From a virus, in the IMG/VR virus record IMGVR_UViG_3300017963_000011, positions 32,001 through 96,000 of that record: DNA of 64,000 bases; one strand, written 5' to 3'. Shown one piece after another: positions 38,034 to 63,221 of the stretch (positions are counted from its first letter, which is position 1; each line of letters opens with the position of its first letter). A program made the position numbers and the translations under genes. The notes beneath the pieces are model-generated. The model saw nothing but the letters and a program-made list of their open reading frames with translations. It had not been told where the DNA came from and did not search any database.

Positions 38034-38063
38034 GATCCGTCCTTTCTAGTCTCGGCGCCGAGA

Positions 38064-38200
38064 CTGATTGCGGTAGCGGGAGATGGAATTCTACCACCCG
38101 ATCATCCTTTGGTTCACGGGAACGCTAGGCATATAGGCTCCATCCTTCCCTAGCCAGCCGCAGGGGGCCTATTCCTGCGAGCCCCGCTACCGTCAATCAG
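38064..38200 (-). ncRNA. Unknown multi-hairpin structured RNA
   Basis: 17-bp closing stem around four hairpins; loop-loop complementarity ATAGGC/GCCTAT. Confidence 0.55.
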
Positions 38201-38209
38201 AATTCTCAT

Positions 38210-38284
38210 TGGGGCTGGTGACAGGAATCGAACCCGCAACCACCTCATTACAAGTGAGGCGCTCTACCATTGAGCCACACCAGC
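38210..38284 (-). tRNA. trnT: tRNA-Thr(UGU)
   Basis: Canonical cloverleaf GCTGGTG/CACCAGC, anticodon loop CTTGTAA, TTCGATT T-loop, encoded CCA. Confidence 0.95.
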
Positions 38285-38373
38285 CCGTCAATAGGCCGAG
38301 GGGCGACTATCCGCTTAGGCGCAGACCGGGACCGCCCTAAGTTTCAGAGGTCGCCTTTCTCCTCGATGATCTT

Positions 38374-38479
38374 TGGTGGAGGGGGCAGGATTCGAACCTG
38401 CAACTGAGACACGGGCGTATGGCGCCTTAAACCCGCGCTCACCGCTTAACGGCGCGTCTGCCACTTCCGCCACCCCTCC
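38374..38479 (-). ncRNA. Non-canonical tRNA-like RNA (Tyr/Leu-type shell, aberrant anticodon and variable region)
   Basis: GGAGGGG/CCCCTCC-ACCA, normal D and T arms; middle is a mini-hairpin with TTAAG loop plus a roughly 37-nt hairpin. Confidence 0.7.
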
Positions 38480-38491
38480 TTGTTCTATACG

Positions 38492-38583
38492 TGCCGGTGC
38501 GCGGGAGTCGAACCCACCACTCCGAGTCTAGTGCCCCGGCGATCATGAGGAGTCGAACCTCACCGTTTCCGAAGGACACCGGC
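38492..38583 (-). ncRNA. tRNA-like RNA with two T-arms
   Basis: GCCGGTG/CACCGGC stem enclosing two GGTTCGACTCC hairpins. Confidence 0.6.
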
Positions 38584-38590
38584 AACTTAG

Positions 38591-38681
38591 CGGGAGAGTG
38601 AGGGATTTCAACCCTCGGGTGACATGCGCCGGCCCCGGAGGTTCAAACCGGGGACCACTCCGTCACGGAGCCCGCTCTCCC
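38591..38681 (-). ncRNA. Non-canonical tRNA-Ser(UGA)-like RNA
   Basis: GGGAGAG/CTCTCCC with discriminator G, 6-bp D-like stem, 9-nt loop TTTGAACCT, T-like arm GAGGG-TTGAAAT-CCCTC. Confidence 0.55.
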
Positions 38682-38690
38682 TGTGATCAC

Positions 38691-40112: not shown

Positions 40113-40113
40113 C

Positions 40114-40677
40114 CTATACCTCCGTGGTAACGGCTCTGGTCGCCTTTCGGATCTGTTTGAGTATGGGTTTCACCTGATGCGTTTCCAGGTAGAGTTCCTC
40201 GCCTATTTCACGCTTGGACATCCCCGCCAAGCGCCCGATGAACACGCGTTTCTGGATCGGACTCAGCCTCTCCATCACTTCCTCGATTATGTCGTGAACG
40301 ACTCCCTTCAATCCAACCATGCTCGGCAAGAGTGGTACGGTAGTTAGGTTCTTACGTCTCAGAAATCTATGCCGAAGGATCATCTTGATCCTATTGTGCG
40401 CTGCATCCCAGAAATACTTGAAGAATGAAAAGCTCTCGTAGCACTCTTGGCATCGTCGGGCGCACTGCCAGAGAACTTCGTCGAGCAACACCGCGACTTC
40501 CTCACCTTCCTCCCAAACGACTCGGCCATACTGTTTGCCGATCTTGTAGTATACTCCGAGCACCCGACTTCTCAAACTATTAAATGCACGATCACGTTCA
40601 ATCGGACACGCGCCTGCACGATTAATAGCCCGGACCTCGAATTTCCATTCATCCCCTTCCAGTCTTTTCCGCTCCAT
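40114..40677 (-). CDS. Phage sigma factor-like protein
   Basis: Region 2-like FFKYFWDAAHNRIK and region 4 HTH LSPIQKRVFIGRLAGMSKREIGEEL. Confidence 0.65.
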   Translation of the reverse strand: MERKRLEGDEWKFEVRAINRAGACPIERDRAFNSLRSRVLGVYYKIGKQYGRVVWEEGEEVAVLLDEVLWQCARRCQECYESFSFFKYFWDAAHNRIKMILRHRFLRRKNLTTVPLLPSMVGLKGVVHDIIEEVMERLSPIQKRVFIGRLAGMSKREIGEELYLETHQVKPILKQIRKATRAVTTEV

Positions 40678-43285: not shown

Positions 43286-43408
43286 TGTCAACGCTCCTTT
43301 CCGTACCTGTGTACGATTGTAACCATGCAGCGCCACCTTGTCAATCTCTTTTTTCCAGTCTGACTCGGCAGTTTTCACCGGGCCAGTGGTAGCGCTACCA
43401 TCCTCTAC

Positions 43409-44386: not shown

Positions 44387-44656
44387 GTCAACCTTCCTAA
44401 TCTCGGCGCCGAGAATGCCACCACTCGGGAGGCTGGCCGACACCGCCATCGAAGAGATCGCACTTTGGTTGATCCCCGGAGTTCTTGAGGTCAGGGTTGT
44501 TTCCGTAGGGGCACTTCTTGCCCCACCAGAGCTTGCACTGTTTGCACTGCATTGTAGCGCTACCACCATTCCGCTGTTACGAGAAGAAGTGTAAGTACGA
44601 AGCCGACGATCAGGCCGGCGGCGATCGGGCCGGGCGGGATCTCCCACCACGGTGCT

Positions 44657-45055
44657 TCATCCAAGTGCTTCCTCGGTCGAGAAGGCGATGCGGCTCCGGT
44701 CAGTGAGGAAAGAGACGTAGCAGTTAACGAGGGCCTGGTGCCACGTGTTCGCCCAGCCACGGTAGGTCGTTTCGTATTCGGAGTATTCACCCCGCTCGAT
44801 GAACTCGCATTGGATGCGGTACATCTTCTTGGCTTTCGAGAAGCCGTGACTTCTCCCGCCGACTCCAGCATGGCCGAAGTACCATGCGGTTGCTCGGGTG
44901 AGGAGATCCCAGAAGGCGATCTTTTCAGCGAGGTTGCCGGCGTGGTATTCCTTGCCCCCGTTGTCATATTCTTTCGGCCGGCGCATCTCTCCGTAAAGGC
45001 TGCTCGCTTCGATTTTTTCCGGCGCTTTGCTCTCGCTCGTTTTCTTCCCATTCAT
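44657..45055 (-). CDS. Hypothetical protein
   Basis: SD AAAGGA. Confidence 0.55.
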   Translation of the reverse strand: MNGKKTSESKAPEKIEASSLYGEMRRPKEYDNGGKEYHAGNLAEKIAFWDLLTRATAWYFGHAGVGGRSHGFSKAKKMYRIQCEFIERGEYSEYETTYRGWANTWHQALVNCYVSFLTDRSRIAFSTEEALG

Positions 45056-45236
45056 CCGGTTCCTTTCTGACTCTACAGATCCGAAAGTTGTACTTGCGCT
45101 GATCGGGCCGGTCGATTATACTACGGACTGAAGCTGGCGTCGGGGGCGAACCCCCCAGCCCCCGGTGCTTGCTCCGTTCAAGACTCACCACCTTTCCGAG
45201 CCCCCTGAACCACCAGACAGGGGGCTCGAACTTTAT

Positions 45237-45265
45237 TTGACATCTTTCATCCCAGGATGTATACT
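45237..45265 (+). promoter_or_regulatory. Near-consensus sigma70 promoter
   Basis: TTGACA-N17-TATACT. Confidence 0.7.
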
Positions 45266-45376
45266 CTTGTTAACCGGCTTGTCCGGTTCTTTGGCTCCCG
45301 TCCGGTGCGTTAGCATCGGCCCCTAGCGGTTCTTGGCAGATCTGTTGGGACGGGGGCCAAAAATCTTTATTAGCAC

Positions 45377-45405
45377 TTGACTTATGTGCGACTCTGGTGC
45401 ATAGT
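45377..45405 (+). promoter_or_regulatory. Second sigma70-like promoter
   Basis: TTGACT-N17-CATAGT upstream of the AAGGAG SD of 45440. Confidence 0.5.
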
Positions 45406-45439
45406 ATAGCACTGCCAAGAACAAGGCTAAGGAGTCAAG

Positions 45440-46438
45440 ATGCTAACCGAGACACTCAGAAAGTTCCACCGCTCGCAGAGCGGTTCGCCCGTATTCTCAC
45501 TCCCTTCCGGGAAGCGCGTTGATCTGCGAGAGAAGCGCTCTCGGCAGGATCTTGCCAAGTGGATCGCCGAGCAGTTCAACGGCGATCTTGATGCGGCCGA
45601 CGACGCAGTGAGTTCTGTCATGGCAAGGGCATTGAGGGAAGCCCGAGCCCCTTGGCCATACCTCCTATCGGCTCTCCGTGGTATCGCCGAAGAAGCTGAC
45701 ACGAGAGAGCCTCTTTCTCGCCAATGCACGAATGCCATGTTCTCCTCTCGCATCGGCAAGTGCCACTACCGCATCGCTCGCAATGTGCTCGGCGACCTTA
45801 CCGACCCCCTCACCCTTAGTGGCCGAGAATACAACCTGTCAAATTCCGACGACTACTCGCTGGCCGTTCAAGAACTTCTAGGCGATGACCCTTTCCCGCT
45901 GTTCATGGCCACTGCCCCTCAGTTCGCCAAGTTCATTACGAGCCGGCGCCTCGTCGATGACTTGATCCAGTACCGTGCCATCACCAACGACGTGAGCGAG
46001 GCAAAGGAAGCTCAGGCTACCTTTCTCGGCTTTGTCGGGCAGGCACTTGCACAGTGTGTTTTGACGAATGAGTTCCGTGAATGTCTCAAGGTCATCAAGA
46101 GCTTCTATTCCCGGTTCTTCCACCCGGCTATCCTCGGGGTGAGGGTGCCGGGTATCGGAGTCATGCGCTGTCTTAGCAACGCAGGCTATCGTGAGTTTCT
46201 CCACGCCCTCTTCAGGCACCGGCAGGATCACGAACTCCTACGCTCCGATTGGTTGCGGCAGGCGTTGCACCTGGGCATCGTAACGAACCCTATTTCGTGG
46301 CTCGTGTTCATACTCACCCGGAACGTTGATACCGCCGAGGACTGGATGGATGTCCAGTGGTATGATACAATTAAGATGACGCAGGAGTTTGGACTCAGGC
46401 GTGTAACTGAGCTTTTCCCGAATCTGGTGGCGGTATGA
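45440..46438 (+). CDS. Hypothetical protein (opposite strand to its neighbours)
   Basis: 332-aa ORF with SD AAGGAG and its own promoters. Confidence 0.7.
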   Translation: MLTETLRKFHRSQSGSPVFSLPSGKRVDLREKRSRQDLAKWIAEQFNGDLDAADDAVSSVMARALREARAPWPYLLSALRGIAEEADTREPLSRQCTNAMFSSRIGKCHYRIARNVLGDLTDPLTLSGREYNLSNSDDYSLAVQELLGDDPFPLFMATAPQFAKFITSRRLVDDLIQYRAITNDVSEAKEAQATFLGFVGQALAQCVLTNEFRECLKVIKSFYSRFFHPAILGVRVPGIGVMRCLSNAGYREFLHALFRHRQDHELLRSDWLRQALHLGIVTNPISWLVFILTRNVDTAEDWMDVQWYDTIKMTQEFGLRRVTELFPNLVAV

Positions 46439-47001
46439 GTAAAGATCCAGCAGTCGAGGTCTATGACGACGATGATGAGTTCTTCGATACCGAGGAAGAC
46501 GAGGAACTCACTAGCGTTCAGAAGGTTTGGAGAGCCCGGCAAGTAGCCGTGTTCTTCTGCACCGGCAAGAACTTCGAGGACATCGCTCAAGAACTTGAAG
46601 TGACCGCTGACACGGTGCGTCGATGGTTCAACACGCCCGAGTGTCAGAAGGTCATCAACAAGATCCAGCACAGCGACATCAAGCTGGCTCGGAATAGTCT
46701 CCGTGAAGTTCTCCCTGATTTCTGCGATCGGCTCAAGACCGACATCCAGAACGAGGGCGATAACACGTACCAAGCGATGAAGCTGTACGCCAAGGTGATG
46801 GGCCTTGATGAGCGGCAGAAGGGCACGGACGCTGCGCTCTCGAACTACGAGGAAGTCATGCGCATGGTCTTTGGCGATGACGATGAGGATGACATCACCG
46901 AAATCGCGCATCCTAGTCAACTCCTTTCTGAGACAACAGAAACCAACTCTCACGATGATGACGATGAAGAGGAGGCTTCTAGCGAGGTAGACGACACATA
47001 A
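46435..47001 (+). CDS. HTH protein, terminase-small-subunit-like
   Basis: FEDIAQELEVTADTVRRWF HTH followed by helices; acidic termini. Confidence 0.55.
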   Translation: MSKDPAVEVYDDDDEFFDTEEDEELTSVQKVWRARQVAVFFCTGKNFEDIAQELEVTADTVRRWFNTPECQKVINKIQHSDIKLARNSLREVLPDFCDRLKTDIQNEGDNTYQAMKLYAKVMGLDERQKGTDAALSNYEEVMRMVFGDDDEDDITEIAHPSQLLSETTETNSHDDDDEEEASSEVDDT

Positions 47002-47048
47002 CTGAGATGCACGCAATCGAGCGAACGATGCGTCTCTACATACTGAGC

Positions 47049-47543
47049 TTATCTGAACCCTGCCAGAGTGGCGGGGTTTAGTGTTAGTAGCCTCCTTTTC
47101 CTGGGCGACTCCTTGAAGCTGTAGTAGTCATCCTCTCCGATGATGATGTGGTCGAGCACCTCGATCTTGAGGAAGGCGCAGAGCATCACCACTGCCTTAG
47201 TGAGCATCACATCCGGCATACTGGGCTCAGGCCCACAGCCGGGGTGGTTGTGGAAGATGACGATCTTCTTGCCGCCCACCATGATGATGTGGCGTAGCAG
47301 GGCAGTGATATCTACCACTGACATGTCAGAGTCTCCAGCGTTGATCTGAGACTCGCCGATGTACCTCTTCTCCAGGTCCAGCGCTACCACCAGGAAGCGC
47401 TCGTTGGTGTACTTGCCGATGGCCTTCCTGCCGTGCTCGGCGATGTCGCAGACGTACTCGAAATTGATGTGGTCGATGCGTCGGTCAGTCGTCTTCCAGA
47501 CGACCTCGAATTCTTTGGCGAATCTAGGCGTCTCCTCCTCCAT
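47049..47543 (-). CDS. radC: RadC-like JAB/MPN domain protein
   Basis: NERFLVVALD, IFHNHPG..PEPS.PD, EVLDHIIIG. Confidence 0.9.
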   Translation of the reverse strand: MEEETPRFAKEFEVVWKTTDRRIDHINFEYVCDIAEHGRKAIGKYTNERFLVVALDLEKRYIGESQINAGDSDMSVVDITALLRHIIMVGGKKIVIFHNHPGCGPEPSMPDVMLTKAVVMLCAFLKIEVLDHIIIGEDDYYSFKESPRKRRLLTLNPATLAGFR

Positions 47544-48210
47544 CGTCGTCCACCTCCAGTGCTCGACCATCGCTGGTGTGCATGAGTGCGCAGGCCATGC
47601 AGACGTAGATCCTGCGGCCATATTTCTCGCTTTCTTGTGGATCGTATTCGAGGATCTCCCCGCACTCGGAGCATTCGATCGGATCATTGTACTCGTCATA
47701 GATTGCCAGGACCAGATCGTCATCCACAGTACACGTTTCCTTTCGGGTAGGGGTAGGCGATGGTCTTGCCGTCTTCGGTCTTGATCTCTCCGTGCTTGAT
47801 CTTGTCCGTCTTGCCCAGGAAGAAATCGTGACGGATGTTGTGATCGGGGCACTCGATCGTGCCATCCTGATTGAAGATGAAGACTAGCTTCTCGGGCTTA
47901 TCCACATCGTTGTCCACAGTATCCACACCCTCTCATTCTCGGCGCCGAGATTAGTTGACCTCTGGGTGGCTGCTTGCGTAGAGGTTGATCTCGGCCCACC
48001 ATACGAGGTAGTCGTCGTCCTTTGACCAGAGCCAGTTCCAGTAGTGGTGCTCCCCCGGCCAGTTAGGCCGGTCCCGCATTAGATAGTGGAAGGACTCAGG
48101 GTCATCCTCGAATAGCAGGAACAGCCTCTGGCGCAAGAGGCGGAACTCCAGCTTCTTCTTGTACTGGTAGAACAGAACCCTCTTGCGCCTGACCGGATCG
48201 AAGACCCAAC

Positions 48211-48432
48211 TCAGGTCGTCATCTTGACCTTCGGCTTCGGTTTCACCTTGTCGTCGTCGTAGTACGTCTCCTTCTTCGTCTCGTCCAGGGTCACGAAGCC
48301 GTCTGTCAGCCATTTCGTCTTCTCACATGCCTTCCCTTTGAAGCCTTGCATGTCGATGTTGATCTTGCCGTCTTTCCAGGTCACGATGATGCGCTTGCCA
48401 TCGTACTCGCTTACGAAGCCGTCACCTGCCAT
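48211..48432 (-). CDS. DUF2997-like protein
   Basis: KDGKINIDMQGFKGKAC; downstream of the AAA ATPase and DUF1257-like gene. Confidence 0.7.
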   Translation of the reverse strand: MAGDGFVSEYDGKRIIVTWKDGKINIDMQGFKGKACEKTKWLTDGFVTLDETKKETYYDDDKVKPKPKVKMTT

Positions 48433-48433
48433 G

Positions 48434-48901
48434 TTACCACCCCGCGCTCACTTTCTGCTTGCCCTTGGGGCGAAGCTCCATGTAGTTCGTGCCGTCCGGG
48501 AGCACCTTGCGCTCGAACGTCATCCATTCCTGGCCTTCCATTGTTTCGGCCAGTTTCTTGCGCACCTGACCCTCGGGATAGATCTGCTCGATCTTCTCCT
48601 GGAAGCCGAGGTTGAGGTTCACGTCGTTGACCTTCAGGGCGTAGGTGCCATCGTCTTGCAGCTTGAAGCCGATGTCCTTGTGGTAGTGCCGCCGCCCCTG
48701 GATCTCCGTAGTTCCCCCGAGGATCGTGATGTCGGCGAATTCGTCGCCATGATCAAAGCCGGCATAACCGACCATCTTGCGGTTCGGGGTCAGGTCGATC
48801 TTCTCCTTGGGGATGCCCAGGCCCCACTCCTTGTTGGTCAGGCACTCGATCAGTAGCTCTCGATCCGTGAACGGGAGAGCCGATTGCAGGAACTTACTCA
48901 T
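48434..48901 (-). CDS. DUF1257-like protein
   Basis: MSKF...DRELLIECL...DIGFK..DGTY...Y pattern. Confidence 0.65.
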   Translation of the reverse strand: MSKFLQSALPFTDRELLIECLTNKEWGLGIPKEKIDLTPNRKMVGYAGFDHGDEFADITILGGTTEIQGRRHYHKDIGFKLQDDGTYALKVNDVNLNLGFQEKIEQIYPEGQVRKKLAETMEGQEWMTFERKVLPDGTNYMELRPKGKQKVSAGW

Positions 48902-48923
48902 CTCGTCTCCTCTCGTGGTAGCG

Positions 48924-50744: not shown

Positions 50745-50776
50745 TGTATTCCGTCCTCTCATTCTCGGCGCCGAGA

Positions 50777-51799: not shown

Positions 51800-51800
51800 G

Positions 51801-52737: not shown

Positions 52738-53080
52738 GCCTGTCCTTCTCGTGTTGTAGGACTAGGCGTATGGCTCTCACGAGTCCGGGTTTCTTCTCCA
52801 GAGTATTCACGCACCAGTCGAGGTAGTCCGGGTCCATCTGAAAGACCTCGTTGATTGGGAAGCCCTTGTACTTGCCGAACATGAACCGCGTACTGAGCGC
52901 TTCGTCCAGAGTCAACGTATCGTTGAGTAGGATTTCGCCACGCTCGTAAGCTGTGAGGAGCCTCTCGAATGTGACTCGGGCGCTGCCGGCGAGATACTTC
53001 CAGTCGATTTCACTCCCGCCGGCAGCGGCCTTGTTGTAGTCGGCGAGCCAGACGCGCAGTCCATTGAGCGTGTCTTTCAT
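52709..53080 (-). CDS. Protein with ExoX C-terminal/DUF3820-like motif
   Basis: FMFGKYKG......DPDYLDWC. Confidence 0.65.
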   Translation of the reverse strand: MKDTLNGLRVWLADYNKAAAGGSEIDWKYLAGSARVTFERLLTAYERGEILLNDTLTLDEALSTRFMFGKYKGFPINEVFQMDPDYLDWCVNTLEKKPGLVRAIRLVLQHEKDRHEEAKRRNY

Positions 53081-53083
53081 GGC

Positions 53084-53368
53084 TCACCTCTTGAACTTGA
53101 GCTTGATCTCCTGTTCCTTGCCATCCTTAATGGCCTGCGGGCCGACAACGTACACGTGGCAGAAGATTTCCTTCTCACCCTCCTTCCCGTTGGGCATGTC
53201 GCTCACGCGCACCTCGATCCTGAGTTCGGTGGGGCTGATGTCGCCTTCCTCCCGGAAGAGGACGCGTTCGTAGCTGCCACCGTTGCCGTTCTTCGGGCCA
53301 GTCTCTACCTTGCTCGTGCGGCCGTCCACTTCGAGCATGTGCCAGACGTTTCTTACGTTTCGAGGCAT
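53084..53368 (-). CDS. Hypothetical early protein
   Basis: Starts after palindrome A and SD AAAGGA. Confidence 0.6.
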   Translation of the reverse strand: MPRNVRNVWHMLEVDGRTSKVETGPKNGNGGSYERVLFREEGDISPTELRIEVRVSDMPNGKEGEKEIFCHVYVVGPQAIKDGKEQEIKLKFKR

Positions 53369-53399
53369 GGTTTCAGTCCTTTCATTCTCGGCGCCGAGA

Positions 53400-53912
53400 T
53401 TAGCTGATGTTGATTTCTTCTCCGCTGAGAAACTCGTGGCTATCGTCGTCATCGGAATTCTTGCCGGTGTCGTTGCTCGACGAGCAACCCGGCAGAAGAT
53501 CCTTGGGGTCGCTCTCGTCATCGAGGTCGCTCTCGAAGACCAGGGCGTCGTCCCAGCCCATGTTGAACACTGTCCAGGCGTCTTTCTCCAAGCGGAGCAC
53601 GGCCTCGTCGAAGACTTCTCGGATGATCTTGAGCACATCCGGTAAAGACACAGGCAGTGAGCGCCGCCGGTTGTAGGTTTTCACCCGCAACTCCCTGCCT
53701 TCGATTCCATGGGCCGCCCAGATGTGAACCTTCTGGCACCGACAGAAGGTGTCGTGGTTCTTGCTGTCATCTACGTGTTCGAGGTAGATGTTGAACAGCT
53801 TGGGCACCTTCCAGACCATGCGCTCCATCTCGGGCTCGTTCCAGTCGAAGATACCCGTGGACTGGAGGAAGCTGGTCAACTGCCCCCAGTATACTTTCTT
53901 CACTTTCGCCAT
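53400..53912 (-). CDS. Hypothetical early protein with acidic tail
   Basis: Between motif B and palindrome A. Confidence 0.6.
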   Translation of the reverse strand: MAKVKKVYWGQLTSFLQSTGIFDWNEPEMERMVWKVPKLFNIYLEHVDDSKNHDTFCRCQKVHIWAAHGIEGRELRVKTYNRRRSLPVSLPDVLKIIREVFDEAVLRLEKDAWTVFNMGWDDALVFESDLDDESDPKDLLPGCSSSNDTGKNSDDDDSHEFLSGEEINIS

Positions 53913-53954
53913 TGTGTTTCTCCCTTCACCCTATAGGGCCGCGATTGGCAAGCC

Positions 53955-54374
53955 CTAGATTGAGCCGTAGTGCATTCTGATCCAGGGATCTGGCTCGAAC
54001 TGCTTCTGATCCTTGAAGCGGTGCATGGTCGTGACCCACCCTTTGGTTCGGGCAGCGCCGTACCACCAGACACCGTGGACGTCCTTGGCGTGCCACCATA
54101 CGCAGCTTCCACAGAAGCCGCGCCTTGTTGTGTAGGTGCTCGTCACCGTGGCCAGCTTTCCCCCGCTCCATGTGGTGATGAGCTTGCCGTCGCTGGAGAG
54201 GTAAGCCTGGAACTTGGTGGCCGTCTTGAGTTCCTTGCGCTGGGCTTTGTTGGCGCAAGCATAGCACATGGTCTTTCCAGTCTCCCGGTCGTGGCACACG
54301 CCAGTAGCGCAGCTACCTTTCTTGCGCCTTGTGGGGAGGTGCCCACAGTCGAGCAGTGTTCCAGTTTTTGCCAT
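53955..54374 (-). CDS. Hypothetical Cys-containing early protein
   Basis: Starts after palindrome A and SD. Confidence 0.6.
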   Translation of the reverse strand: MAKTGTLLDCGHLPTRRKKGSCATGVCHDRETGKTMCYACANKAQRKELKTATKFQAYLSSDGKLITTWSGGKLATVTSTYTTRRGFCGSCVWWHAKDVHGVWWYGAARTKGWVTTMHRFKDQKQFEPDPWIRMHYGSI

Positions 54375-54412
54375 GTCAGAGTCCTTTCAGTCTCGGCGCC
54401 GAGACTAGGCGT

Positions 54413-56200
54413 CTAGTAGCGGTAGCTGATCTTGCGGGCGACGACGCGCCGGAACCCGTTGCGGTAGATGAAGACGAGCCGGCCACGGTAGCCGCGCCCG
54501 ATGTTCAGACTCGCCCAGTAGAGGCCAACCAGCCCTGACTTTCTCTTGTCGAACGTCCAGCGGCGCTCGTAGGCGCTGCGTTCGGTCGGGCGCTTGGTCG
54601 ACTCGATGGCGATCTTCACGACGTTCTTGGGGATCTCGATAGTGCGTTGCTGGTTCACGTTCAGTCCTCCTCATAGTATCCGCGCTTCTCGCGCATGGTG
54701 GTGAGACGGTCGAGGGTCTTCTCGAAGCCGTGCTTGTTGAAGTAGTCCTGGGCTTCGACCTGCGCCTCCCAGGACACGGAGATGTAGTCGATCCCTCTAG
54801 GGTTCGTTGCAATCTCGATTTCCTCGGCAAGCTCATGGGCGAGCTTCTCGTGCAGACTCAGGTAGGAACCGGGTCGTTTCAGGTCTGAGAAGTCAACCTT
54901 GCTCTCCATCAACTTCTGAACTCCCTTGGATACTGCCATCTAGTCCTCCTCCGTATCTTCCCCGTCCTCGGTCAGGCCGAAGAATTCTGTGTCGGAACCA
55001 TGTTCGCCAAGCAGACGAGCGGCTGTTCTTGCGCAGATGACCTCATCCTTCTGATTGCGGGTGATGCCGGAAGCATAGCTGTTATCGCCGAAGCAAGCCG
55101 CATCGACTTCTTCGAGGGTCATGTCTACCGGCAGTTCGCTCTCGCTCAGGATCTCGAACGTGATTGTGCGCTTGTAGAACTTGCGCTGGCTCTTGGCCGC
55201 CTCTTTCCTACACTCTTCCGAGCAGACGTAGGTGAACGCCTTCTTTCCGCAGAGGCCGCCCTCGATCAAGCGGCCGTTTCGAGTAGTAAGTCTGAGCCGC
55301 TTGTTGCACGCCGCACAGTGCGAGAAGAACGTCTTGTCCATTACTCCTCCTTCAACGTAGCGCTACCATCCTTGACAGCCTGCTGCGCATCTTCGAGGCT
55401 CTCGGGCAAGCCGTGCATCTTGCGAGTGAGCTTCTTTTCGTCGCTGTCGCTCTCGCTGTAGCGGTACAGCCCGGCGAGCACGTCACCCTTGAGCATGTCC
55501 CACCCGGTCGAGCCGATCTTGTTCTGGCCACGATCCATCTCGAAACCGAACGTGATGCCGAGTATGGCCAGATCCTTGTGCATCTTTCGCCAGAGCTTCT
55601 TGATGTTGTTGCCGTTCTCCTGCCACACGATGGCGCCGAAGCCATAGTCGGATAGGATCTGCACACGGAAGTTCGGATCGTCCAGAGGCATCTGGGCCAG
55701 GTCTTCCTCTGTCCAGCCGCAGGAGTCGACCGCTTCTTTCCAGCCCTTCTCGCCGGCCTCGCTTGGCGAGATGGCCTTGACTTCCACTCCGTAGGTTGCG
55801 CCGACCTCTTCCTTGCAACCGTGTTCCTCCCACGGGATGATTTCCGCGACGAGCCAGAAGTAGAACTCGCCATTGCACATGCGCTGGGAGATGAACTTCC
55901 CCCCGTAGGTGAGGTAGTTTACGTCTCCCGTGAGGAATTTGAAGATGGGCTTTGCGATGTGGATGCGGGCGCACTCGCTGATCGGATTCTTACGCGGCGG
56001 TTTCCAGCCTAGCATTTGTCACCGTCCTTTTCATAGAGCCAGTGCAGTTCTTTGTACGGACACTTCGAGCAGTCGACCTCGAATGCGTTGCGCCCGATGA
56101 TCGACGGGTGCTTGCAGGAGAAGTCCCATGCGCTGCGCCACTTGCATGTGTGGTCAGAGGCTGCCGGGCCATCCGGTAGCCAGAACCTCGGTCTTGCCAT
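54413..56200 (-). other. Run of coupled hypothetical genes (54413-54658, 54661-54939, 54940-55341, 55341-56015, 56009-56200)
   Basis: Abutting or overlapping ORFs with SD sequences, bounded by palindrome A at both ends. Confidence 0.6.
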
Positions 56201-56227
56201 AGCAGCCTCCATTCTCGGCGCCGAGAC

Positions 56228-57153
56228 TCAGTAGTTTACAGCGTGGACCAACGTGTCGAGACAGTTGATGCCATCGGGCCATGTGAAGCAGTCGATGTCT
56301 TCGATCTCCTCGACCCACACGCCATCTTTCAGGACGCCGGGATCGGCTGCGCGGTTCACCACGCAGCCGCCCTCGACGACATACCAGTCACCGTACACGA
56401 GCACCATGCAAGGGGTGCCTTCGGAACCGTAGGTTCCCCGGATCGTTCGTCTCATTCCCATTCTCCCGTCACGTTGCCGTCGTCGTCGATCTTGCGGGTC
56501 ATGTAGGGCTTTTTCTCGAACCATTCGGTGTCGATGGCGAAGCAGCACACGCCGCTCGTCGGGCTCCAGTAGCTCTCGCGGCCAGTCATGTACTCCTCGA
56601 AGCTGGATGGAGTGCCCAGGTCGCCGGCATTGGGCACGCACGGCGAACAGCGATGGGCGAAGGTCACGATGGGAGCATCGAGGACGAAGATGATCTCCGC
56701 CCCGCCGAGGTAGGACATCTCGTAGATGAAACCGCCCTCTTCCAGCCGGTACGTCGGCTCGTCGCACTCCCACTGTTCCATGTAGGCGTCGATGAGTTCG
56801 GTTTCACCGTCGAATTCGACATCGACAGACACATTGGTAGTGATGATGTCTCCGTCGTCATCGTCGATGATTTCGTCGAAATCGTGGATGAGATCGGCGC
56901 AGACTTGCTCGCGGATCGTGTCGATCATGTTGTCGGCCCTGCGCTTGGCTTCTTCCAGAGCCTTGCGGATTTGCTGCTTGATCTCTTCTCGTTTCTGCTC
57001 GACGGTCACGTTGGTGCCGTGCTCGAAGATGTGCTCCATGAGTTCGGGTACCCTGTTCCCGTAGATTGTGCCGTAGGCGATGCCCTTCTTCGGATGCACG
57101 TTGGCGATCTGCCCATCGTGAGGCAGGTTCGGATTGATGGTCGATCTTGCCAT
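56228..57153 (-). other. Two hypothetical genes (56228 to about 56455; 56452-57153, acidic)
   Basis: Bounded by palindrome A at both ends. Confidence 0.6.
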
Positions 57154-57183
57154 GTCAGAGTCCTTTCATTCTCGGCGCCGAGA

Positions 57184-57636
57184 TTAGGCGGCGTTGTTCA
57201 ACTCTTTCTCGAATCTGCAAGCCGGGCAGCAACCGGCCTTTGTGGGCTCGCGCTTGTCACGGCCGCACTTCTCGCACTTGTATTTCTCTTCGATCTCCTC
57301 GATAGTGGTGACGTACACGAAGCCCTGATCGCTCTCCTCCAGATGAACTTCCCTGACCCCCTCCAACTCCGGGAACATGGCGACATCTTCTTCCGTGACC
57401 TGGAAGATGTCGATGGGCTTGTGCGGGCACTCGTCGGCCTCGCAGCCGTCCTCACCGTAAGCCTCGCACTTCTCTTCGTCGCACGGGTACTCTCGCTCGC
57501 CGCCCCCTTCCATCATGATGTCGTAGAAGTAGGGAGCGTAGAGCATTTCTGCCTCGAACTTGCCGGGCGAGCGGATCACGCCATGCTCGTCCACCTTGTA
57601 GTCTCTGAGGATTTTTTCTCTGGTCATCCCGACCAC
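57184..57636 (-). CDS. Hypothetical acidic, Cys-rich protein
   Basis: SPGKFEAE motif; flanked by palindrome A on both sides. Confidence 0.6.
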   Translation of the reverse strand: MVGMTREKILRDYKVDEHGVIRSPGKFEAEMLYAPYFYDIMMEGGGEREYPCDEEKCEAYGEDGCEADECPHKPIDIFQVTEEDVAMFPELEGVREVHLEESDQGFVYVTTIEEIEEKYKCEKCGRDKREPTKAGCCPACRFEKELNNAA

Positions 57637-57731
57637 CTTTCAGTCTCGGCGCCGAGATTGCTCGGCGCCGGCTAGTTCCATGTACCCTCACCCTATAGGG
57701 CCGAGAATGGCAACCGTGGTAGCGCTATCCC

Positions 57732-58328
57732 CTAGTCTTTGTACTCATCAGTCTTGAGCCAGTTCAGGAACCACTCGCTCTCCTTGAACTCTGAAACGCA
57801 GACAGGCCAGGAACCATCCCAGGTTCCATCGTGAGTGTGTTCGTCGTGGAAGTCCTGCACGTAGTCATCGTAGGCACGGAGAACTTGTTTGTCGTCTGCT
57901 TCACTCGGGTCGAGGAAGATTACGTCGTCGAAGTGACCGAAGCCCCGAGCCCCCTCGTCGAGCTTGTCGGTCAAGATCCCCCACACTTCCGTGCGTGACC
58001 AGAAACCAGAACCATGCCCTTGTCGAGAGAGCCAGAAGTCGCACGCTGCTTTCTCGATACGATGCGGGCCTATCATGCGCCCGAATCTTTGAAGGAATCG
58101 GGCGCAGTCTTCGCGCATCTTCTTGAGCGTGTCTTTCCCTAACTCTTCCCGTAGATTCTCCGTGCTTGAATTCGTGCGGCTGTCCGGGCACTCGGCCCAG
58201 CACGCGGAGTCCACGTAGGTTTCATAGAAGCGGTCCAGGTCTTTGTACGGGCACTTGAGCCCGCAGTTTTCTTGTTGAGATGCGCTTGCATCACACTCGA
58301 TCCTGCCTTCTTTGCAGAACATAGGCAT
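57732..58328 (-). CDS. Phage hypothetical protein
   Basis: DFWLSRQGHGSGFW motif recalled from phage early proteins. Confidence 0.6.
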   Translation of the reverse strand: MPMFCKEGRIECDASASQQENCGLKCPYKDLDRFYETYVDSACWAECPDSRTNSSTENLREELGKDTLKKMREDCARFLQRFGRMIGPHRIEKAACDFWLSRQGHGSGFWSRTEVWGILTDKLDEGARGFGHFDDVIFLDPSEADDKQVLRAYDDYVQDFHDEHTHDGTWDGSWPVCVSEFKESEWFLNWLKTDEYKD

Positions 58329-58350
58329 CCTTTCATTCTCGGCGCCGAGA

Positions 58351-61300
58351 TTAGAAGTCGATGTAATCGAGAATCTTCTTGAGCAGATTGATAGGCGCAA
58401 GGTCATCCCACTTGGTCTTGCGCTTCTCGTTGAGAGACTCGTCGGCGTTGCTGTAGAATGCCCCCGTTTCGATCCTGTCAATGGCGAAGATCTCTACCCC
58501 GCAGTAGCCGTGCCTGCGATTGATTGTGAGCACGTAGGTGTACGGCACCTTCACGCCCCACTGGTCGCGAATCAACTCGCGGAAGACATGGATCTCATCT
58601 GACTCTCCAGCCTGGAGAGTGACCGTGTGCCTGCCCACTTTGTCTCGGTACGTGAGCGTGAGAGCACGGTTGTAGCGCTGGGCTTCCCGCGCCTCGTCCC
58701 ACGTTTCGTGCTTGATCTCGTAGTTGCGCACCGTTCTGATCATTCGATACCCTCTCCGTCACCGATGAATTCGGCGCTCTTGCCTTCCTCGAAGGTGTTC
58801 TGGATGTCGTCCCAGTTGTCGTACCCACAGCCCTCACAGGCGAAGGTATCCTCTCCAGGTTCCCCCACCTTGAAGTCTCTTCCGCAGTTGTAGCACGTGA
58901 AGCGGCCGTCCCAGTTTCCACGCTTGAGCATGCAGTACAGGCGCTGGAACTGTGTTGAGATGTTGAAGCTCGACGCTCCCCACGGGTCATGCTTGTCGCC
59001 TGACACATCAGGAAGCTCCGGCCAGCCCAGGCCAAGGGCTTGCTTGATCTCGACATAGCCGGCGGCCATGCTGAGAGCTTGCGAGATACGTGCGATGATC
59101 TTGTCACGGAGTTCGTTGCTGATCTGGCGGTATAGCTTGCCCTTCATTTTGCACCAGAAGAATTGCGGGATACCGCCTTCGTTCAAGTCGTGCTCGATGA
59201 TGAGCGCCTTGCCATCCTCACGTGGCTCGAAACCGATGCTTCCACACTGATACTGTACCAGTTTCACGCGGTCCTCCTTGCACTTGCGTAGTGATTGCAC
59301 TTGTTCGTGCGCATTGCCTCGTTGAACTCGTCCTTCGTCACGTAGCGATTGTCACAAGCGGCCTCATCCTTTGGACAGGTGGGCGTACACTTGCATCCCT
59401 TGTAGAAGAAGAGACATCCCGAGCACAGGTCGCCGATGTGATCCTCTTCTGTCTCGCCGTACCACGGCATCCTCTTAGGCTTTCGCATTGCCCTCCTTAG
59501 TCTCGGCGCCGAGACTGGGCTCGATGAGCCCGAGCCTCGTGTTCACCTCGTTACGCAGGCGTTTGTACTCGACGAGCATCTTGTCCCACACGGCTTGCAT
59601 GCCATGCTTGACGTAGGTGCAAGCGAGCGAGATACCATCCCCGCTGGAGCTATCCGTGCGTGCCGGTCGTCCGTTGATGAGCCAACAGCCCGGCCTCCCG
59701 TTCTTTTCGTCATACGCATGCCAGGAGACGCACCTGCCTCGCACCGCTTTCTGGCACCCCGTTTTGACGATGGAGCCGTTTTCCTCGATCCGTTCTACGA
59801 TGCCCGTATATAGATCGAAACGCACCGCAGCATACATGTTGTCCGTCACTACGAAGATGTAATCGCGCTCGAAAACATCACCAGGTACGTAGCCTTCGCC
59901 GTTGTTTCTCCCGCTCACATAGAGCTTGAACTCGATCTCAGGCATGTCATTCTCCAATCAATGCGTAGAGTTCCCCCACGGCTTTTGCCATGAGACTACG
60001 TAGTTTCCGTCCGATTCGAGACGACTCTTCAACGCTGATACCAGTGGGCTGCACCACTCCCGAACCTACTGTGCGAGGGATATGCAGTCCACCGCCCTGG
60101 CGCCAGATCGCATGCGCCTGTCCGAAGGCGACCAGCGCATGCTCTAGTTCATCCCGCCCGATACGCGCCAGGCATTTGGCGATAGCGCTCTCCATAGAGC
60201 GCACGAGCTTGTCTTCGTCCAGGCAGTAGTAGACCTTGCGCTGGAATGCGAGATCCGCGTCATGCGCTTTCGGTTGCGTCATGATCTTGAGCACGAGTCC
60301 GTTGAACTCATTGATGACCGACATCTCACTCCCATTCATTCTCGGCGCCGAGAATGGGCTCGATCTCTTGCCAAGCCCATCCCATGCGCTTCCAGAAATT
60401 GTCGAGCACAGGGCTGGAGATGTGCAGCCACCACATGATCCCGAGCGTAATCCCGAGATTGATCTGTGCGCTTTTCACGTTGTCCTCGTCGAGAGCCGCA
60501 GTGACTTTCTTGAGAGTCTCTCGCATGCGCAAGGCCAGTTCGCGCGGGGTCTGTGTACGGAAGAAGTCATCGTAGATGACCTTCATGCGGAGCCGAGCCA
60601 CGCATGGATGCTTCTCGATGATCTTGTCGACGAGCCTCTGAAGTTCCATCATCCTGTCACGCTTCACACCATCCCCCTCGCGTGGAGTTCGTCTTGCAGG
60701 CGGATCTTGAGCTTGGCCAGCTTCTGAAACTGCGTGACGAGATCGCCGCAATACGCCTTCTGCACGATCTTGTTGTCCTGCGCCGTCTTGAATGAGTCTA
60801 CGGCTGCCTTGATCCGAACCCATGCGCTTCGCAGGCAGCCGATGCGCCTGTCCTTGTGCATGCAGTCGACGAAGTTCTGGACTGCGAGCGAGGCATCGGC
60901 TACGCTCTCCTTCAGATGGTTGACGAGCCCTAGCCCTACCTTCTCCGCAGGATTGATCCCAGACATAGTTGCCTCCATTCTCGGTGCCGAGATTACTTGC
61001 TCATCAGCGTGCGCCACACGCTGCCTTCACCCTTGAGAACGACCCGACTCGTGGGCTCACCGTTGACGAGATCCACGACGAGCATGAGAGCCGTGACCCA
61101 TGCTTGCTTGGCGAGTTCTCTGTACTTGGCGAGCGCTCTCCCGTAGTTCGTAAACGGCTCTGGCTTAGTCTTGCCGAATTGCGGGTTCACGATGACGAAG
61201 TACATTCGGGCTCCTCTCATTCTCGGCGCCGAGATTGATCGGCACCGAATTCGTACTTGGCTTCTCAGGGGCGATGTGCATGCCCCTCTACCCTATAGGG

Positions 61301-61815
61301 CCGAGAATGGCAAGGTTGTACGCAAAAAAAAAAGCCAGCCCGAAGGCTGGCGTGGAGAGTTCAACGCGATTGGAGCATTGTCGTTGTGGGGCGTGCCCCT
61401 ACCCCGGACGCATCTCAATCACCTCCCGATCAAGGGAACACATTGTTCAACCTATAGTGCCGAGAATGGCAACGTGGTAGCGCTACGCTCTGGGATCTCC
61501 GATGTAGGTGCCATCGGCTCTGAAGTCGCCGCCCTTGTGGCCAACGATCCGAGCCATCTTTCCCTCGCCAGCGTACCATAGATCACCGAGCCAGTCACAG
61601 ATGTTGCACGCGGCCCAATAAGCAAACTTCTCGCCATTGCCGCAACCAAAGTCTTCGTACTTAGGCCACGCCTGATTGGGGAAGCGTACCTCGATCCGGC
61701 GCATGCGCTTGTAGAGCGGGCAGGCTTTGCCACCGTGTCTGTCTTCGAGGAAGCAATGCCAGGCAATGAAGAGGTCCATTCGAGTGAAGGTGCCATCCCA
61801 ATGACCCTTGAACAT
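58351..61815 (-). other. Series of short hypothetical genes (58351-58743, 58740-59300, 59264-59488, 59475-59957, 59947-60324, 60326-60667, 60664-60966, 60993-61205, 61483-61815)
   Basis: Tightly packed - strand ORFs punctuated by palindrome A. Confidence 0.6.
61324..61351 (-). terminator. Intrinsic terminator
   Basis: GCCAGCC-TTCG-GGCTGGC-T10. Confidence 0.9.
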
Positions 61816-61997
61816 TCAGCCTCCATTCTCGGCGCCGAGAATGAGCGCCGATCCGATCCGATGCGATTCGCAAATGCTCTCACCCTATAGGGCCGAGAAT
61901 GGCAACGTTGATCCGGCGCGATTGATCCCATGCGATTCGCTCATGATCCGACGCGATTCGCCTTGATCCGACGCATGATCCCATGCGATTCGCGTAT

Positions 61998-62029
61998 AAA
62001 AAAAAAAGCCCCGCACATTGTGCGGGGCT
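61998..62029 (-). terminator. Intrinsic terminator
   Basis: GCCCCGCAC-AAT-GTGCGGGGC-T10. Confidence 0.9.
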
Positions 62030-63221
62030 CGTCTCCGTCGCCTCTTGCGGCCGATAGAATGTTGGGTATATGTTGTGTCAATGATCGGGATGCATGACTA
62101 CCTCCAGAGTAAGAGCGCGCCCCCCTGTTTTATTAGACGGCGGGGGGCTAGTTAGTACCGTCATCCTCTTGATCGTTGGATGTACGCCGGGCGGCTCAAC
62201 TGCTCACGAGTTATGCCTTGCAATTATCACGACTTGTGCCGTGTGCGTGGGGCCTCGGTCACAGGAGCCTTGTGCCCGTAAAACGAAACCCGGCTAGGGA
62301 GGATGGGAAGTGTCGTAGTTGTTACGGAGCACTGATCCTCATTCCATTCTCGGCGCCGAGAATGCCGGTCACTCTCGGCCGCCCTTCGGCTTTGGGCTTG
62401 CTGCCCGTCACCCTATAGTGCCGAGAATGGCAAGCCTCTGCCGGGACGCGTTTCTACATCTATTATATAGCATGTTTCCAGGTCGTATTCCACTACCCTC
62501 TCGCGCGCGTGCGCACGCACCACTACCCTCTCGCATGTGTGTTCTCGTTTTCACCACCTTACCCGTCACCACCCTCTCATGCGCGTTATCACCACCTTAC
62601 CCCCCACCACCTTATCGACGCGTATCACCCCCGTGCGTCATGGTTGACGCCTCGACGGGTCTACGCGCGGGCGGGCGCGGGTTGACGGGTCTACGCGGGC
62701 GGGCGCGCGTATAGTATATATAGACACGAGAGACGCGCGCGGGCGCCCGCGCCCGCGAAGAAAGGAATCGCACGCGCGCATGCGGGCGCGCGTCCTATAG
62801 ACGGGCGGGCGCGTCTATCGGGCCGGCTCGCTTCCTTTTCTTCGGGCGTGCGGGCGGGCGCATGCGTGCGCGCGTCCTATAGACGGCGCGCGAATCCATT
62901 GAATCAGCGGGCGCCGCCCATGCTACGTCTCATGGCGTAGCGCTACCACGGGCGGGCGCCGGCCGCCGGCTCGGGCCGGCGGCCCGAGCGGCCCGCAAGG
63001 CGGCGCCAGATTCGCCACGAGAGCGCCGGAATCGGCCCGAATTGGGCCGCAAGCCAGCCGGCCCGAGTATCGGCCCGGCTCGGCCCCTTGCGGCCGTTAG
63101 ACGGCGAATCTGCTAGACGCTACGCACGCGCCCGCGTCTATATAGTACATGACGCACGGGCACGGGCGCGCGAAGAAAAGGAAAGGGCCGGCCCTTTCAA
63201 TGCGTAGACGGGCGCGCGTAT

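Follow-up and report, generated by a model that had tools for sequence, protein, structure and literature searches.

What function is served by a short palindrome that recurs in one arm of an uncultured tailed phage, most often where one gene ends and the next begins? We analyzed a 64,000-nt window of the 105,134-bp phage genome (genome 32001 to 96000; coordinates are those of the window unless given as genome positions) and gave the palindrome with core TCTCGGCGCCGAGA the working name P2. A first-pass annotation had counted 15 perfect copies and two with one mismatch. Our motif scan of the window yielded the same numbers (mismatched copies at 30360 and 60979; 17 copies in total), compared to an expectation of 0.02, and none of 100 dinucleotide-preserving shuffles attained 17. 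The reported concentration of 15 of these copies at 44.4 to 62.4 kb was also recovered (44401 to 62361). The genome-wide scan that the annotation had suggested found 25 copies (22 exact, 3 with one mismatch), each of them within genome 62.3 to 104.3 kb; a further copy with two mismatches lies at genome 97232. Of the 25 copies, 22 keep the 14-bp core unchanged. Seventeen copies are located at gene junctions of one arm and eight in a GC-rich control region, and none lies deep within a gene. Outside this arm, comparable short junctions carry an SD alone or the phage's other palindrome. Because such junctions do without P2, the element is arm specific and not a general requirement of gene junctions. 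A second palindrome of the phage follows the same 5+GCGC+5 plan as P2.

At the junctions, the usual order on the (-) strand is stop codon, P2 core, 3 to 8 nt, the GG of the SD, and start codon, as first described, with TAA directly adjoining the core in seven copies. The arrangement TAA-core-SD-start occurs at 47937 to 47950, 50763 to 50776 (start of an AAA+ ATPase gene), 53386 to 53399, 57170 to 57183, 58337 to 58350, and 60979 to 60992 (the mismatch here falling in the central GCGC). TAG replaces TAA at 54391 to 54404. Four cores lie within the final codons of the upstream ORF: the one-mismatch copy at 30360 to 30373 (SbcC-like gene; a P1 palindrome is 4 nt away), 44401 to 44414 (51-aa ORF), 59501 to 59514 (last ∼13 codons of a 156-aa ORF), and 60340 to 60353 (113-aa ORF; a perfect 20-bp palindrome), the second and third being followed by an SD and a start. 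The copy at 38050 to 38063 marks the end of a tRNA/non-coding stretch and precedes an SD and the start of a 57-aa gene. Four more copies are found in leaders 50 to 73 nt downstream of a promoter-like 24-mer, motif B, in agreement with the earlier description: 57644 to 57657 (50 nt), 61221 to 61234 (73 nt), 61827 to 61840 (59 nt), and 62348 to 62361 (66 nt), the latter two being perfect 20-bp palindromes. The copy at 62348 forms the 5' end of a non-coding unit of ∼400 nt, in which no ORF of ≥40 aa was found. The proposed division into cassette-like units of one to five genes is apt as a description of P2 spacing only.

The bases flanking the core obey a strict rule. Position -2 is A and position +2 is T in 17/17 window copies, whereas -1 is A, G, or T (8, 4, and 5 copies) but never C, and +1 is A, C, or T (12, 4, and 1 copies) but never G. 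The A-D-core-H-T pattern noted on first inspection therefore holds throughout the window, and it extends to the eight copies of the control region, which lie outside the window (8/8 have A at -2 and 7/8 have T at +2). Conservation reaches one base further, with Y at -3 and mostly G at +3, which makes the unit a 20-bp dyad, YAD-core-HTR. When the 50 half-sites of all 25 copies were compiled, -2 was A in 49, -3 was Y in 48, and C never occurred at -1. Positions ±2 and ±3 are also retained in those copies whose ±1 bases are unable to pair (A/A in seven, T/C in three). Base-specific protein contacts would profit from these outer positions; an RNA or DNA stem would not. At 56213 to 56226, the TGA stop is displaced by one base and A at -2 is preserved. 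In the control region, where the flanks are under no stop codon or SD constraint, the outer positions are conserved equally to those of the junction copies. This symmetry, kept regardless of pairing at ±1, supports the original preference for a dimeric DNA site over an RNA stem.

P2 sequence also reappears in putative promoters. The half-site CCATTCTCGGC constitutes the upstream part of motif B, which occurs in five close and two to three diverged copies, all those located here being on the (-) strand. The copy at 57690 to 57713 consists of TTGCCA, the half-site, and CTATAGGGT. Others lie directly 3' of an intrinsic terminator with a T10 run (61290 to 61313), beside a preceding P1 palindrome at the head of a ∼120-nt unit with a terminator at its end (61449 to 61472), after a terminator and about four direct repeats of ∼18 nt (61882 to 61905), and, in the CACTATAGGG form, at 62410 to 62433. 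Diverged copies precede a 170-aa gene (53928 to 53951; three half-site changes) and come immediately after a sigma-54-type promoter and a P2 copy, both situated just beyond the window (63966 to 63989). Motif B thus follows terminators and precedes leaders, as a promoter would, although the half-site within it could stem from common descent without a shared reader. Apart from the full sites, the 10.6-kb control region contains 25 occurrences of the 7-mer half-site, compared to 2.3 expected, and several of these directly adjoin the -24 box of a sigma-54-type promoter. The eight P2 copies beside such promoters in this region are absent from the first-pass annotation. At least six P2 copies are not directly followed by an SD or gene start. 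Besides the copy heading the non-coding unit at 62348, one is flanked by a stop codon and an intrinsic terminator (genome 96423), one lies 12 nt upstream of a sigma-54-type promoter (genome 96017), four lie 62 to 149 nt upstream of (-) strand sigma-54-type promoters (genome 97262, 100245, 101931, and 102961; three of them in shared divergent regions), and one has a flank devoid of SD-like sequence (genome 104266).

We propose, with a probability of about 0.45, that P2 is an array of binding sites for a dimeric DNA-binding regulator of the arm, acting as an operator and possibly as a roadblock. We infer the protein binding, its dimeric nature, and the sign of its effect from what the sequence shows directly, namely, copy number, symmetry rule, positions, and half-site sharing. 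The two-fold symmetric 20-bp site (half-site YAD-TCTCGGC) would be read by a dimeric, sequence-specific protein, probably phage encoded, and the 25 sites would form one regulon confined to the leftward accessory/replication arm and the GC-rich control region next to it. The bound protein may modulate initiation, most simply by repression, at motif B and at the sigma-54-type promoters, since a half-site lies inside the motif B core and further sites lie beside or upstream of the latter promoters. At the 17 junctions it could also impede elongating RNA polymerase, such that blocks of one to five genes would be shut down or insulated in the course of infection. The tight stop-site-SD-start phasing would then follow from the compactness of the genome: P2 would occupy the sole non-coding bases, with TAA or TAG and the following ATG or CTG furnishing the outer A..T. 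A candidate reader, offered as a lead only, is encoded within the arm on the opposite strand, namely, a 188-aa helix-turn-helix protein (46435 to 47001, + strand) whose gene pair (45440 to 47001) has upstream a near-consensus sigma-70 promoter (45237 to 45265, + strand; 11/12 positions). Counting against a regulator, almost all arm genes are ORFans that lack a Pfam DNA-binding domain.

Alternatively, the palindrome and its fixed-distance SD could be a gene-start module of polycistronic mRNA, read by an RNA-binding protein or endoribonuclease, of phage or host origin, that processes, stabilizes, or translationally controls the cistrons, reminiscent of T4 RegA/RegB logic and of Cluster K mycobacteriophage start-associated sequences. 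We consider this somewhat unlikely. All junction copies are transcribed and present in mRNA, where an RNA-binding protein or nuclease could be the reader; within the sense transcript, 17/17 arm copies are placed between stop and SD. The distance from core to SD is nearly fixed (GG at +3 to +8; +7 in 10/17 and +3 in 4/17) and steadier than that from SD to start. In addition, the leaders downstream of P2 fall into sub-families (ATGAAAGGAC, ATGGAGGC, and ATGAGAGG), with those of copies 54391 and 57170 agreeing at 22/24 nt, whereas the upstream flanks are unrelated. Given this spacing and these sub-families, site and SD may act or travel as one unit, which would suit an RNA-level or modular-recombination explanation; the presence of P2 in the leaders past motif B also speaks for the RNA-level one. 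However, the RNA hairpin is predicted to be weak (-4.7 kcal/mol for the core alone, -5.5 with TAA flanks, and -9.3 for the perfect 20-mer) and context dependent. In 89-nt contexts the stem probability exceeds 0.9 in some cases and is ≥0.8 in 9/25 copies, suggesting formation in about one-third of contexts, but it is ≤0.15 in the 12/25 where the stem is outcompeted. In two of the three one-mismatch copies, a stem pair is lost to a non-wobble mismatch, and no compensatory changes were seen. Furthermore, the outer A..U is kept beside an unpaired ±1, five of the copies are upstream of promoters, the motif B half-site, located 5' of the probable transcription start, would be missing from that RNA, and other arms are well translated without P2. 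Because the flanks are symmetric, the hairpin is weak, some copies have no SD or start just downstream, and a promoter-like motif incorporates a half-site, the operator or roadblock array put forward earlier stands as the best available reading, unproven and with a reader protein that is only a candidate.

P2 could instead be an upstream activating sequence, bound by an enhancer-binding activator (from the host or an unrecognized phage protein) that drives -24/-12 promoters, with the junction copies serving as a reservoir or as distant enhancers. The control region contains eight near-consensus TGGCAC-N5-TTGCW promoters; each of the five on the (-) strand has a P2 copy 12 to 149 nt upstream (estimated centers at about -45, -94, -95, -106, and -168), and each of three divergent pairs has one common P2 between its partners. 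We nevertheless judge this improbable: 17/25 copies lie in an arm without a sigma-54-type promoter, the sigma-54-type promoter ahead of the structural operon (genome 17855) lacks a P2 copy, some half-sites touch the -24 box and so occupy a repressor-like and not an enhancer position, and no phage protein passed the Sigma54_activat threshold, the sole hit being a generic AAA+ core (12.4 bits; E = 0.006).

Similarly improbable is that the repeats are selected mainly as short homologies for gain, loss, and exchange of ORFan blocks of one to five genes, as documented for PeSL-mediated shuffling (PMC2839356, PMC4122927), an idea to which the small ORFan blocks between copies, the resemblance of site plus leader to a portable 5' module with sub-families, and the phage-encoded RecA and SbcC-like nuclease lend some appeal. 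It is disfavored because 14 to 20 bp is short for homologous recombination, P2 includes no promoter or terminator and the 26- to 32-nt gaps are too small for one, no paralogous cassettes were found between copies and no integrase, resolvase, or Y1 transposase in the phage, and the strict symmetric flank rule would be left unexplained.

Several known phage systems resemble P2 in part. The Streptomyces phage phiC31 carries CIRs, multiple short and highly conserved inverted repeats that are bound by the phage repressor. Like P2, these are multicopy elements of the early region that lie close to early promoters and to gene starts; unlike our phage, which appears virulent, phiC31 is temperate, and the two systems differ in sequence, copy number, and host group. 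Stoperators of Cluster A mycobacteriophages (L5, TipsytheTRex), proposed to block initiation and elongation, share with P2 more than 20 near-identical sites per genome, short intergenic locations, and a related sequence at promoters (PMC9283540). They are, however, 13-bp asymmetric sites that function in a single orientation, bound by a monomeric two-domain immunity repressor and used in prophage silencing (PMC9283540), a role that does not apply to a phage that appears virulent. In contrast, P2 is a perfect dyad and, being symmetric, has no orientation, its promoter-like motif contains a half-site only, and no repressor homologue, integrase, or resolvase was found; the suggested kinship in the strict sense is thus lost, and P2 is ruled out as a true stoperator by site symmetry and the lack of an integrase. 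PeSL elements of T4-type phages likewise border ORFans, in an early region that is plastic and has cassette-like units, but they combine a strong sigma-70 promoter with a terminator stem-loop, features not present in P2, and their recombination was shown experimentally (PMC2839356, PMC4122927). In Cluster K mycobacteriophages, SAS and extended SAS (ESAS) resemble P2 as conserved elements that directly precede the starts of many genes, ESAS being an inverted repeat of unknown function just before an SD-containing motif (PMC3203893). There, SAS is an asymmetric 13-mer that includes the SD, and the ESAS arms are imperfect 17-mers with a 4- to 13-bp spacer (PMC3203893); P2 differs as a perfect unspaced dyad with a variable SD and with at least six copies that no start directly follows. 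Finally, the 17-bp dyad of Cluster O mycobacteriophages (TGTTCGG-N3-CCGAACA) has, like P2, invariant inverted-repeat arms and many copies between ORFs, and neither a meaningful orientation nor a known function (PMC4351075). Its >30 copies are spread genome-wide, about one-third of them well inside genes (PMC4351075), a pattern that recalls the other palindrome of the present phage, GTAGCGCTAC, whereas P2 is restricted to one arm and the control region and shares its half-site with a promoter-like motif.

P2, the palindrome under study, is real and strongly nonrandom: the first-pass count of 17 window copies of its 14-bp core (TCTCGGCGCCGAGA), 15 of them exact, was confirmed and compares with 0.02 expected, and a scan of the full genome returned 25 copies, all within genome 62.3 to 104.3 kb and never deep inside a coding sequence. 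The flanks described in that annotation, an outer A and T each separated from the core by one variable base (A-D-core-H-T), were exact in 17/17 window copies. When 50 half-sites were compiled, the dyad grew to 20 bp (YAD-TCTCGGC joined to GCCGAGA-HTR), with A at half-site position −2 in 49/50, Y at −3 in 48/50, and C never at −1. The ±2 and ±3 bases were kept regardless of pairing at ±1, which is A/A in 7 copies and T/C in 3; because isolated pairs past a mismatch add nothing to a stem, this conservation points to base-specific recognition. The eight copies in the control region, a GC-rich stretch next to the main minus-strand gene block, were equally strict, 8/8 having A at −2 and 7/8 having T at +2, and stop codons or ribosome sites cannot be the source of the rule there. 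Window copy 56213 has its TGA stop one base out of the usual place, and A at −2 is thereby kept. Two of the three one-mismatch copies carry an uncompensated, nonwobble disruption of the stem. The RNA hairpin is predicted to be weak (folding energy of −4.7 kcal/mol as the bare core, −5.5 when TAA-flanked, and −9.3 as a perfect 20-mer), with a probability in context of at least 0.8 in 9/25 copies and at most 0.15 in 12/25. Together, the flank rule, the noncoding control-region copies, and the weak hairpin point to a two-fold symmetric protein that reads specific bases in double-stranded DNA rather than to selection for helix stability. They strengthen the earlier preference for a DNA site over an RNA stem; the protein, a hypothetical dimeric regulator that we call the reader protein, is only postulated, and an RNA role keeps a smaller but appreciable share. 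We read the P2 array as a putative protein-binding operator or roadblock array, with a probability of roughly 0.45.

The 105,134-bp genome, an IMG/VR virus record of which the window covers positions 32001 to 96000, has a 123-bp terminal repeat and belongs to a siphovirus-like phage of an undescribed lineage. Gene coordinates derive from our own crude caller and an ORF listing; comparison of the large ORFs with PHROGs returned terminase, portal, protease-like, capsid, tape measure, and tail proteins, while several large plus-strand ORFs had no match. The terminase, portal, protease-like, major head, tail, and tape-measure genes lie on the plus strand (genome 17.9 to 55 kb). The arm, a minus-strand block of accessory and replication genes (genome 55 to 97 kb), encodes a DnaB-like helicase, an SbcC-like protein, RecA, a family-B polymerase (PolB), and an SNF2 helicase, with dozens of small ORFans coming after all of these, toward the arm start. 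The control region (genome 94.5 to 105 kb; 64% GC) is repeat dense and has few ORFs. A second minus-strand block (genome 0.6 to 17.7 kb) carries ThyX, a DNA methylase, and a sigma factor (genome 9929 to 10570, minus strand). This RpoS-like protein has sigma regions 2, 3, and 4, and RpoS is its nearest match (E = 3e-27 to PDB chains). Next to the SNF2 helicase lies another, weakly sigma-like protein of 187 amino acids (aa) (window 40114 to 40677, minus strand). Megablast against GenBank phages found no DNA-level match, and PolB was only ~22 to 26% identical to cyanophage polymerases. A PolB-based locus search returned nothing from IMG/VR and one irrelevant weak match from GTDB genomes; PolB relatives at 45 to 51% identity were found in metagenomes, one of them on a 103-kb contig. 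Exact scans of IMG/VR found neither the 18-mer palindrome nor motif B, a promoter-like 24-mer, and only single chance copies of the 14-mer. The 18-mer was absent from other viral contigs and occurred in 32 JGI metagenome contigs as single, unrelated chance copies.

In the arm, junction copies of P2 follow the minus-strand order stop codon, core, Shine-Dalgarno sequence (SD), and start codon that had been reported from the first reading, and the whole intergenic gap is 26 to 32 nucleotides (nt). All 17 arm copies occupy such junctions or the last codons of the upstream ORF (four copies), a short-gap placement like that of stoperators; four copies sit in leaders 50 to 73 nt downstream of motif B. 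An SD-like purine run abuts P2 in 17/17 window copies, and a gene start follows in 16 of them. Equally short junctions elsewhere in the genome have just an SD or a second palindrome, GTAGCGCTAC, so translation itself does not require P2. The phasing of P2 to stop codon and SD may be explained most simply by compaction, in which P2 would fill the sole free bases and recruit TAA or TAG for its Y-A-D flank, followed by H-T-G.

The core keeps a tighter spacing to the SD than the SD does to the start codon, and the leaders downstream of P2 form subfamilies, one pair being alike at 22/24 nt; these two features keep both an RNA-level and a modular-recombination role alive. Against the former, the hairpin is weak and the flank rule holds where there is no ribosome site, and we consider a role in RNA the less likely explanation. 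P2 and the SD may also be inherited, or even function, as one 5′ module, as would suit the exchange of cassettes at P2, which we regard as very improbable. Other readings were rejected: a restriction site (center GGCGCC/RGCGCY), because these hexamers show no depletion in the rest of the genome; a T7-type or N4-type polymerase promoter and a parS-like site, because no such polymerase (PF00940, searched with no positive control) and no ParB, respectively, were found in the phage; and an intrinsic terminator, because the stem is weak and lacks a T-tract, whereas real terminators with T-runs exist elsewhere. For REP/RAYT elements, a family of host-chromosome repeats that a Y1 (IS200-like) transposase mobilizes, a search of the phage found no Y1_Tnp gene.

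Two ORF-poor stretches border P2 copies. Copy 62348 stands at the head of a minus-strand unit of ~400 nt (window 62006 to 62347) flanked by motif B/P2 and a strong intrinsic terminator. This unit has no minus-strand ORF of at least 40 aa and no Rfam match, is predicted to be highly structured (z = −4.1 versus shuffles), and is a candidate phage noncoding RNA. On the same strand, ~630 nt without ORFs (window 38064 to 38690) end at a P2 copy; ARAGORN and Rfam found only one tRNA there (Thr, anticodon TGT, 38210 to 38284), the sole hit of the Rfam scan at the gathering threshold, with nothing meaningful at the E-value threshold.

Motif B (TTGCCATTCTCGGC[C/A]CTATAGG[G/T]T) has five close copies and two to three diverged ones, all on the minus strand. 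Copies are preceded by a terminator or gene end and followed by a leader or short terminated unit. This placement is as for a promoter, and from it we infer promoter activity. The upstream half of motif B is exactly one P2 half-site with its flank (CCATTCTCGGC), with the full site absent, and the downstream half, ending in CTATAGGGT, matches the −5 to +3 segment of T7-group promoters. A T7-group promoter reading was rejected, as no single-subunit RNA polymerase was found in the phage (PF00940, a search run with no positive control). Given this result and the RpoS-like and weaker sigma-like proteins that are encoded, the C-TATA-GG block may be a −10-like element. Under either reading, the half-site falls within the core promoter, ahead of the transcription start, a DNA-level position where repression by a P2-binding protein would be expected. 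A sigma-54 promoter on the strand opposite motif B was also rejected, since the −12 GC is absent. A minus-strand unit of ~120 nt (window 61330 to 61448) between motif B and a T10 intrinsic terminator, directly followed by the next motif B, has a sole ORF of 4 codons and is a small-RNA candidate. One motif B is immediately preceded by a minus-strand run of about four ~18-nt direct repeats of the GCGAATCGCATGGGATCA type (window 61906 to 61990), possibly an additional regulator-binding array.

In the control region, at least six of the eight P2 copies have neither an SD nor a gene start directly downstream. One (genome 96423) has a stop codon on one side and a textbook intrinsic terminator on the other, and another (genome 104266) has no SD-like flank. 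Five control-region sigma-54-type promoters have a P2 dyad upstream: the copies at genome 97262, 100245, 101931, and 102961 are 62 to 149 nt upstream of minus-strand promoters of this type (TGGCAC-N5-TTGCW), and the copy at genome 96017 is 12 nt upstream of one. In three divergent promoter pairs, a single P2 copy is common to both promoters. Half-site 7-mers outside full sites are enriched ~10-fold in the control region (25 versus 2.3 expected), several abutting a −24 box. Nine near-consensus sigma-54-type promoters were found, at genome 96004(−), 97200(−), 97569(+), 100182(−), 100502(+), 101857(−), 102825(−), 103273(+), and 17855(+), of which only 96004(−) touches the window (63989 to 64000). 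Eight of the nine head small control-region cassettes, most with a GAAAGGGG ribosome site, and one precedes the terminase/structural operon. To our knowledge, such promoters have rarely been reported in phages. No enhancer-binding protein was recognized among the phage proteins; the Sigma54_activat (PF00158) match, at 12.4 bits versus a cutoff of 20.2, falls on the generic AAA+ core of a 612-aa ATPase, and the activator could come from the host. A scan of the arm found no sigma-54-type promoters near its 17 P2 copies, and a pure enhancer reading thus covers only a third of P2 copies. A perfect sigma-70 promoter (TTGACA-17-TACAAT) stands before the 124-aa gene heading the SNF2/sigma-like operon (window 43286 to 43408, minus strand), indicating that host sigma-70 promoters are apparently in use beside motif B and the sigma-54-type promoters. 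At the boundary between arm and GC-rich stretch, iteron-like direct repeats of the GAGAGGGTAGTGG and GGTAAGGTGGTGA types (window 62500 to 62650, genome about 94500 to 94650, minus strand) mark a possible replication origin.

For the operator or roadblock array, one protein is a lead as the reader of P2. Nearly all arm proteins are without recognizable domains, and no repressor was recognized among the proteins scanned. The candidate is a 188-aa protein with weak HTH_23 similarity (window 46435 to 47001, plus strand), whose language-model neighbors are viral proteins of the GerE/HTH_23 type (scores of 0.94 to 0.95). Its gene and an upstream partner lie inside the arm behind an 11/12 sigma-70 promoter.

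The second palindrome, GTAGCGCTAC, has 35 genome copies (13 as TGGTAGCGCTACCA) at intervals of 0.5 to 5.7 kb (~3 kb) across the whole genome. In the window, 10-bp copies lie at 30377, 35954, 39133, 41861, 43389, 44554, 48918, 51866, 55357, 61477, and 62937, with more across 3059 to 25888. About ten copies are inside genes (PolB, SNF2, and large structural genes); others occupy stop/SD junctions or immediately precede motif B or sigma-54-type promoters. GTAGCGCTAC and P2 have one plan, T-N4-GCGC-N4-A (5+GCGC+5), and GTAGCGCTAC presumably has GGTAGCG in common with the Escherichia coli ops element. A motif scan with GTAGCGCTAC, aimed at relatives of the phage, gave chance copies only and no protein similarity. 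A broader scheme, which we think quite doubtful, is a two-word palindrome code: P2 in the arm and control region and GTAGCGCTAC genome-wide, including essential genes, would be read by related DNA-binding proteins and partition the genome into regulatory domains, with P2 coupling elongation roadblocks to the control both of host sigma-54 promoters and of phage-sigma promoters. We know of no description of these three together in a virulent phage.

The first-pass annotation had compared P2 to the stoperators of mycobacteriophages, and the Cluster A stoperator/operator system appears to be the closest to P2 in working logic: in both, short gaps between genes hold numerous sites, and related sequence turns up in promoter regions (PMC9283540). 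Strict membership fails on symmetry, orientation dependence, and lifestyle. Stoperators are 13 to 14 bp, asymmetric, and oriented with transcription, whereas P2, as a perfect 14-bp palindrome, has no orientation. The Cluster A site is also the operator at the early lytic promoter; here, only a half-site is found, in promoter-like motif B. Cluster A phages are temperate, with a helix-turn-helix plus stoperator-domain immunity repressor that silences the prophage; in this phage, searches found neither integrase nor resolvase, and no repressor was recognized among the proteins scanned. The 17-bp dyad repeats of Cluster O (function not known; PMC4351075), short inverted repeats that have no orientation, resemble P2 in form, and P2 fits them in invariance and copy number. 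They are, however, genome-wide, between and inside genes, a distribution that GTAGCGCTAC fits better than P2, limited to genome 62 to 104 kb. We also take the form of P2 to be akin to the phiC31 CIRs. The SAS/ESAS of Cluster K (PMC3203893) are like P2 in placement but always lie directly before a translation start, with the SD inside or beside them, and at least six of the eight control-region copies of P2 lack both start and SD. PeSLs (PMC2839356) have the ORFan-cassette context in common with P2; they consist of a sigma-70 early promoter plus a terminator-like stem-loop, whereas P2 junction gaps hold P2 and the SD alone, a sigma-70 scan at P2 sites finding nothing and no T-tract following the stem. 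Among related genomes, indels and replacements have their end points at PeSLs, and mini-circles arise. Sigma-54 upstream activating sequences are dyads ~80 to 150 bp upstream of −24/−12 promoters, a placement that P2 has at five control-region promoters (12 to 149 nt) but not in the arm. In T7-group phages, a phage-encoded single-subunit polymerase reads a ~23-bp promoter ending in CTATAGG; the sigma factor of the present phage is instead RpoS-like.

Beyond stoperators and phiC31, we know of no readers of such palindrome arrays. Should the reader protein be found, it could show how accessory genes are timed in a large virulent phage from an undescribed lineage, and with P2 it would form a compact, orthogonal operator/regulator pair. 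Invariant short palindrome arrays at gene junctions recur among phages, those of Cluster O mycobacteriophages being one example; new and unusually informative here are the confinement to one arm, the half-site in a promoter-like motif, the fixed relation to sigma-54-type promoters, and the companion palindrome.
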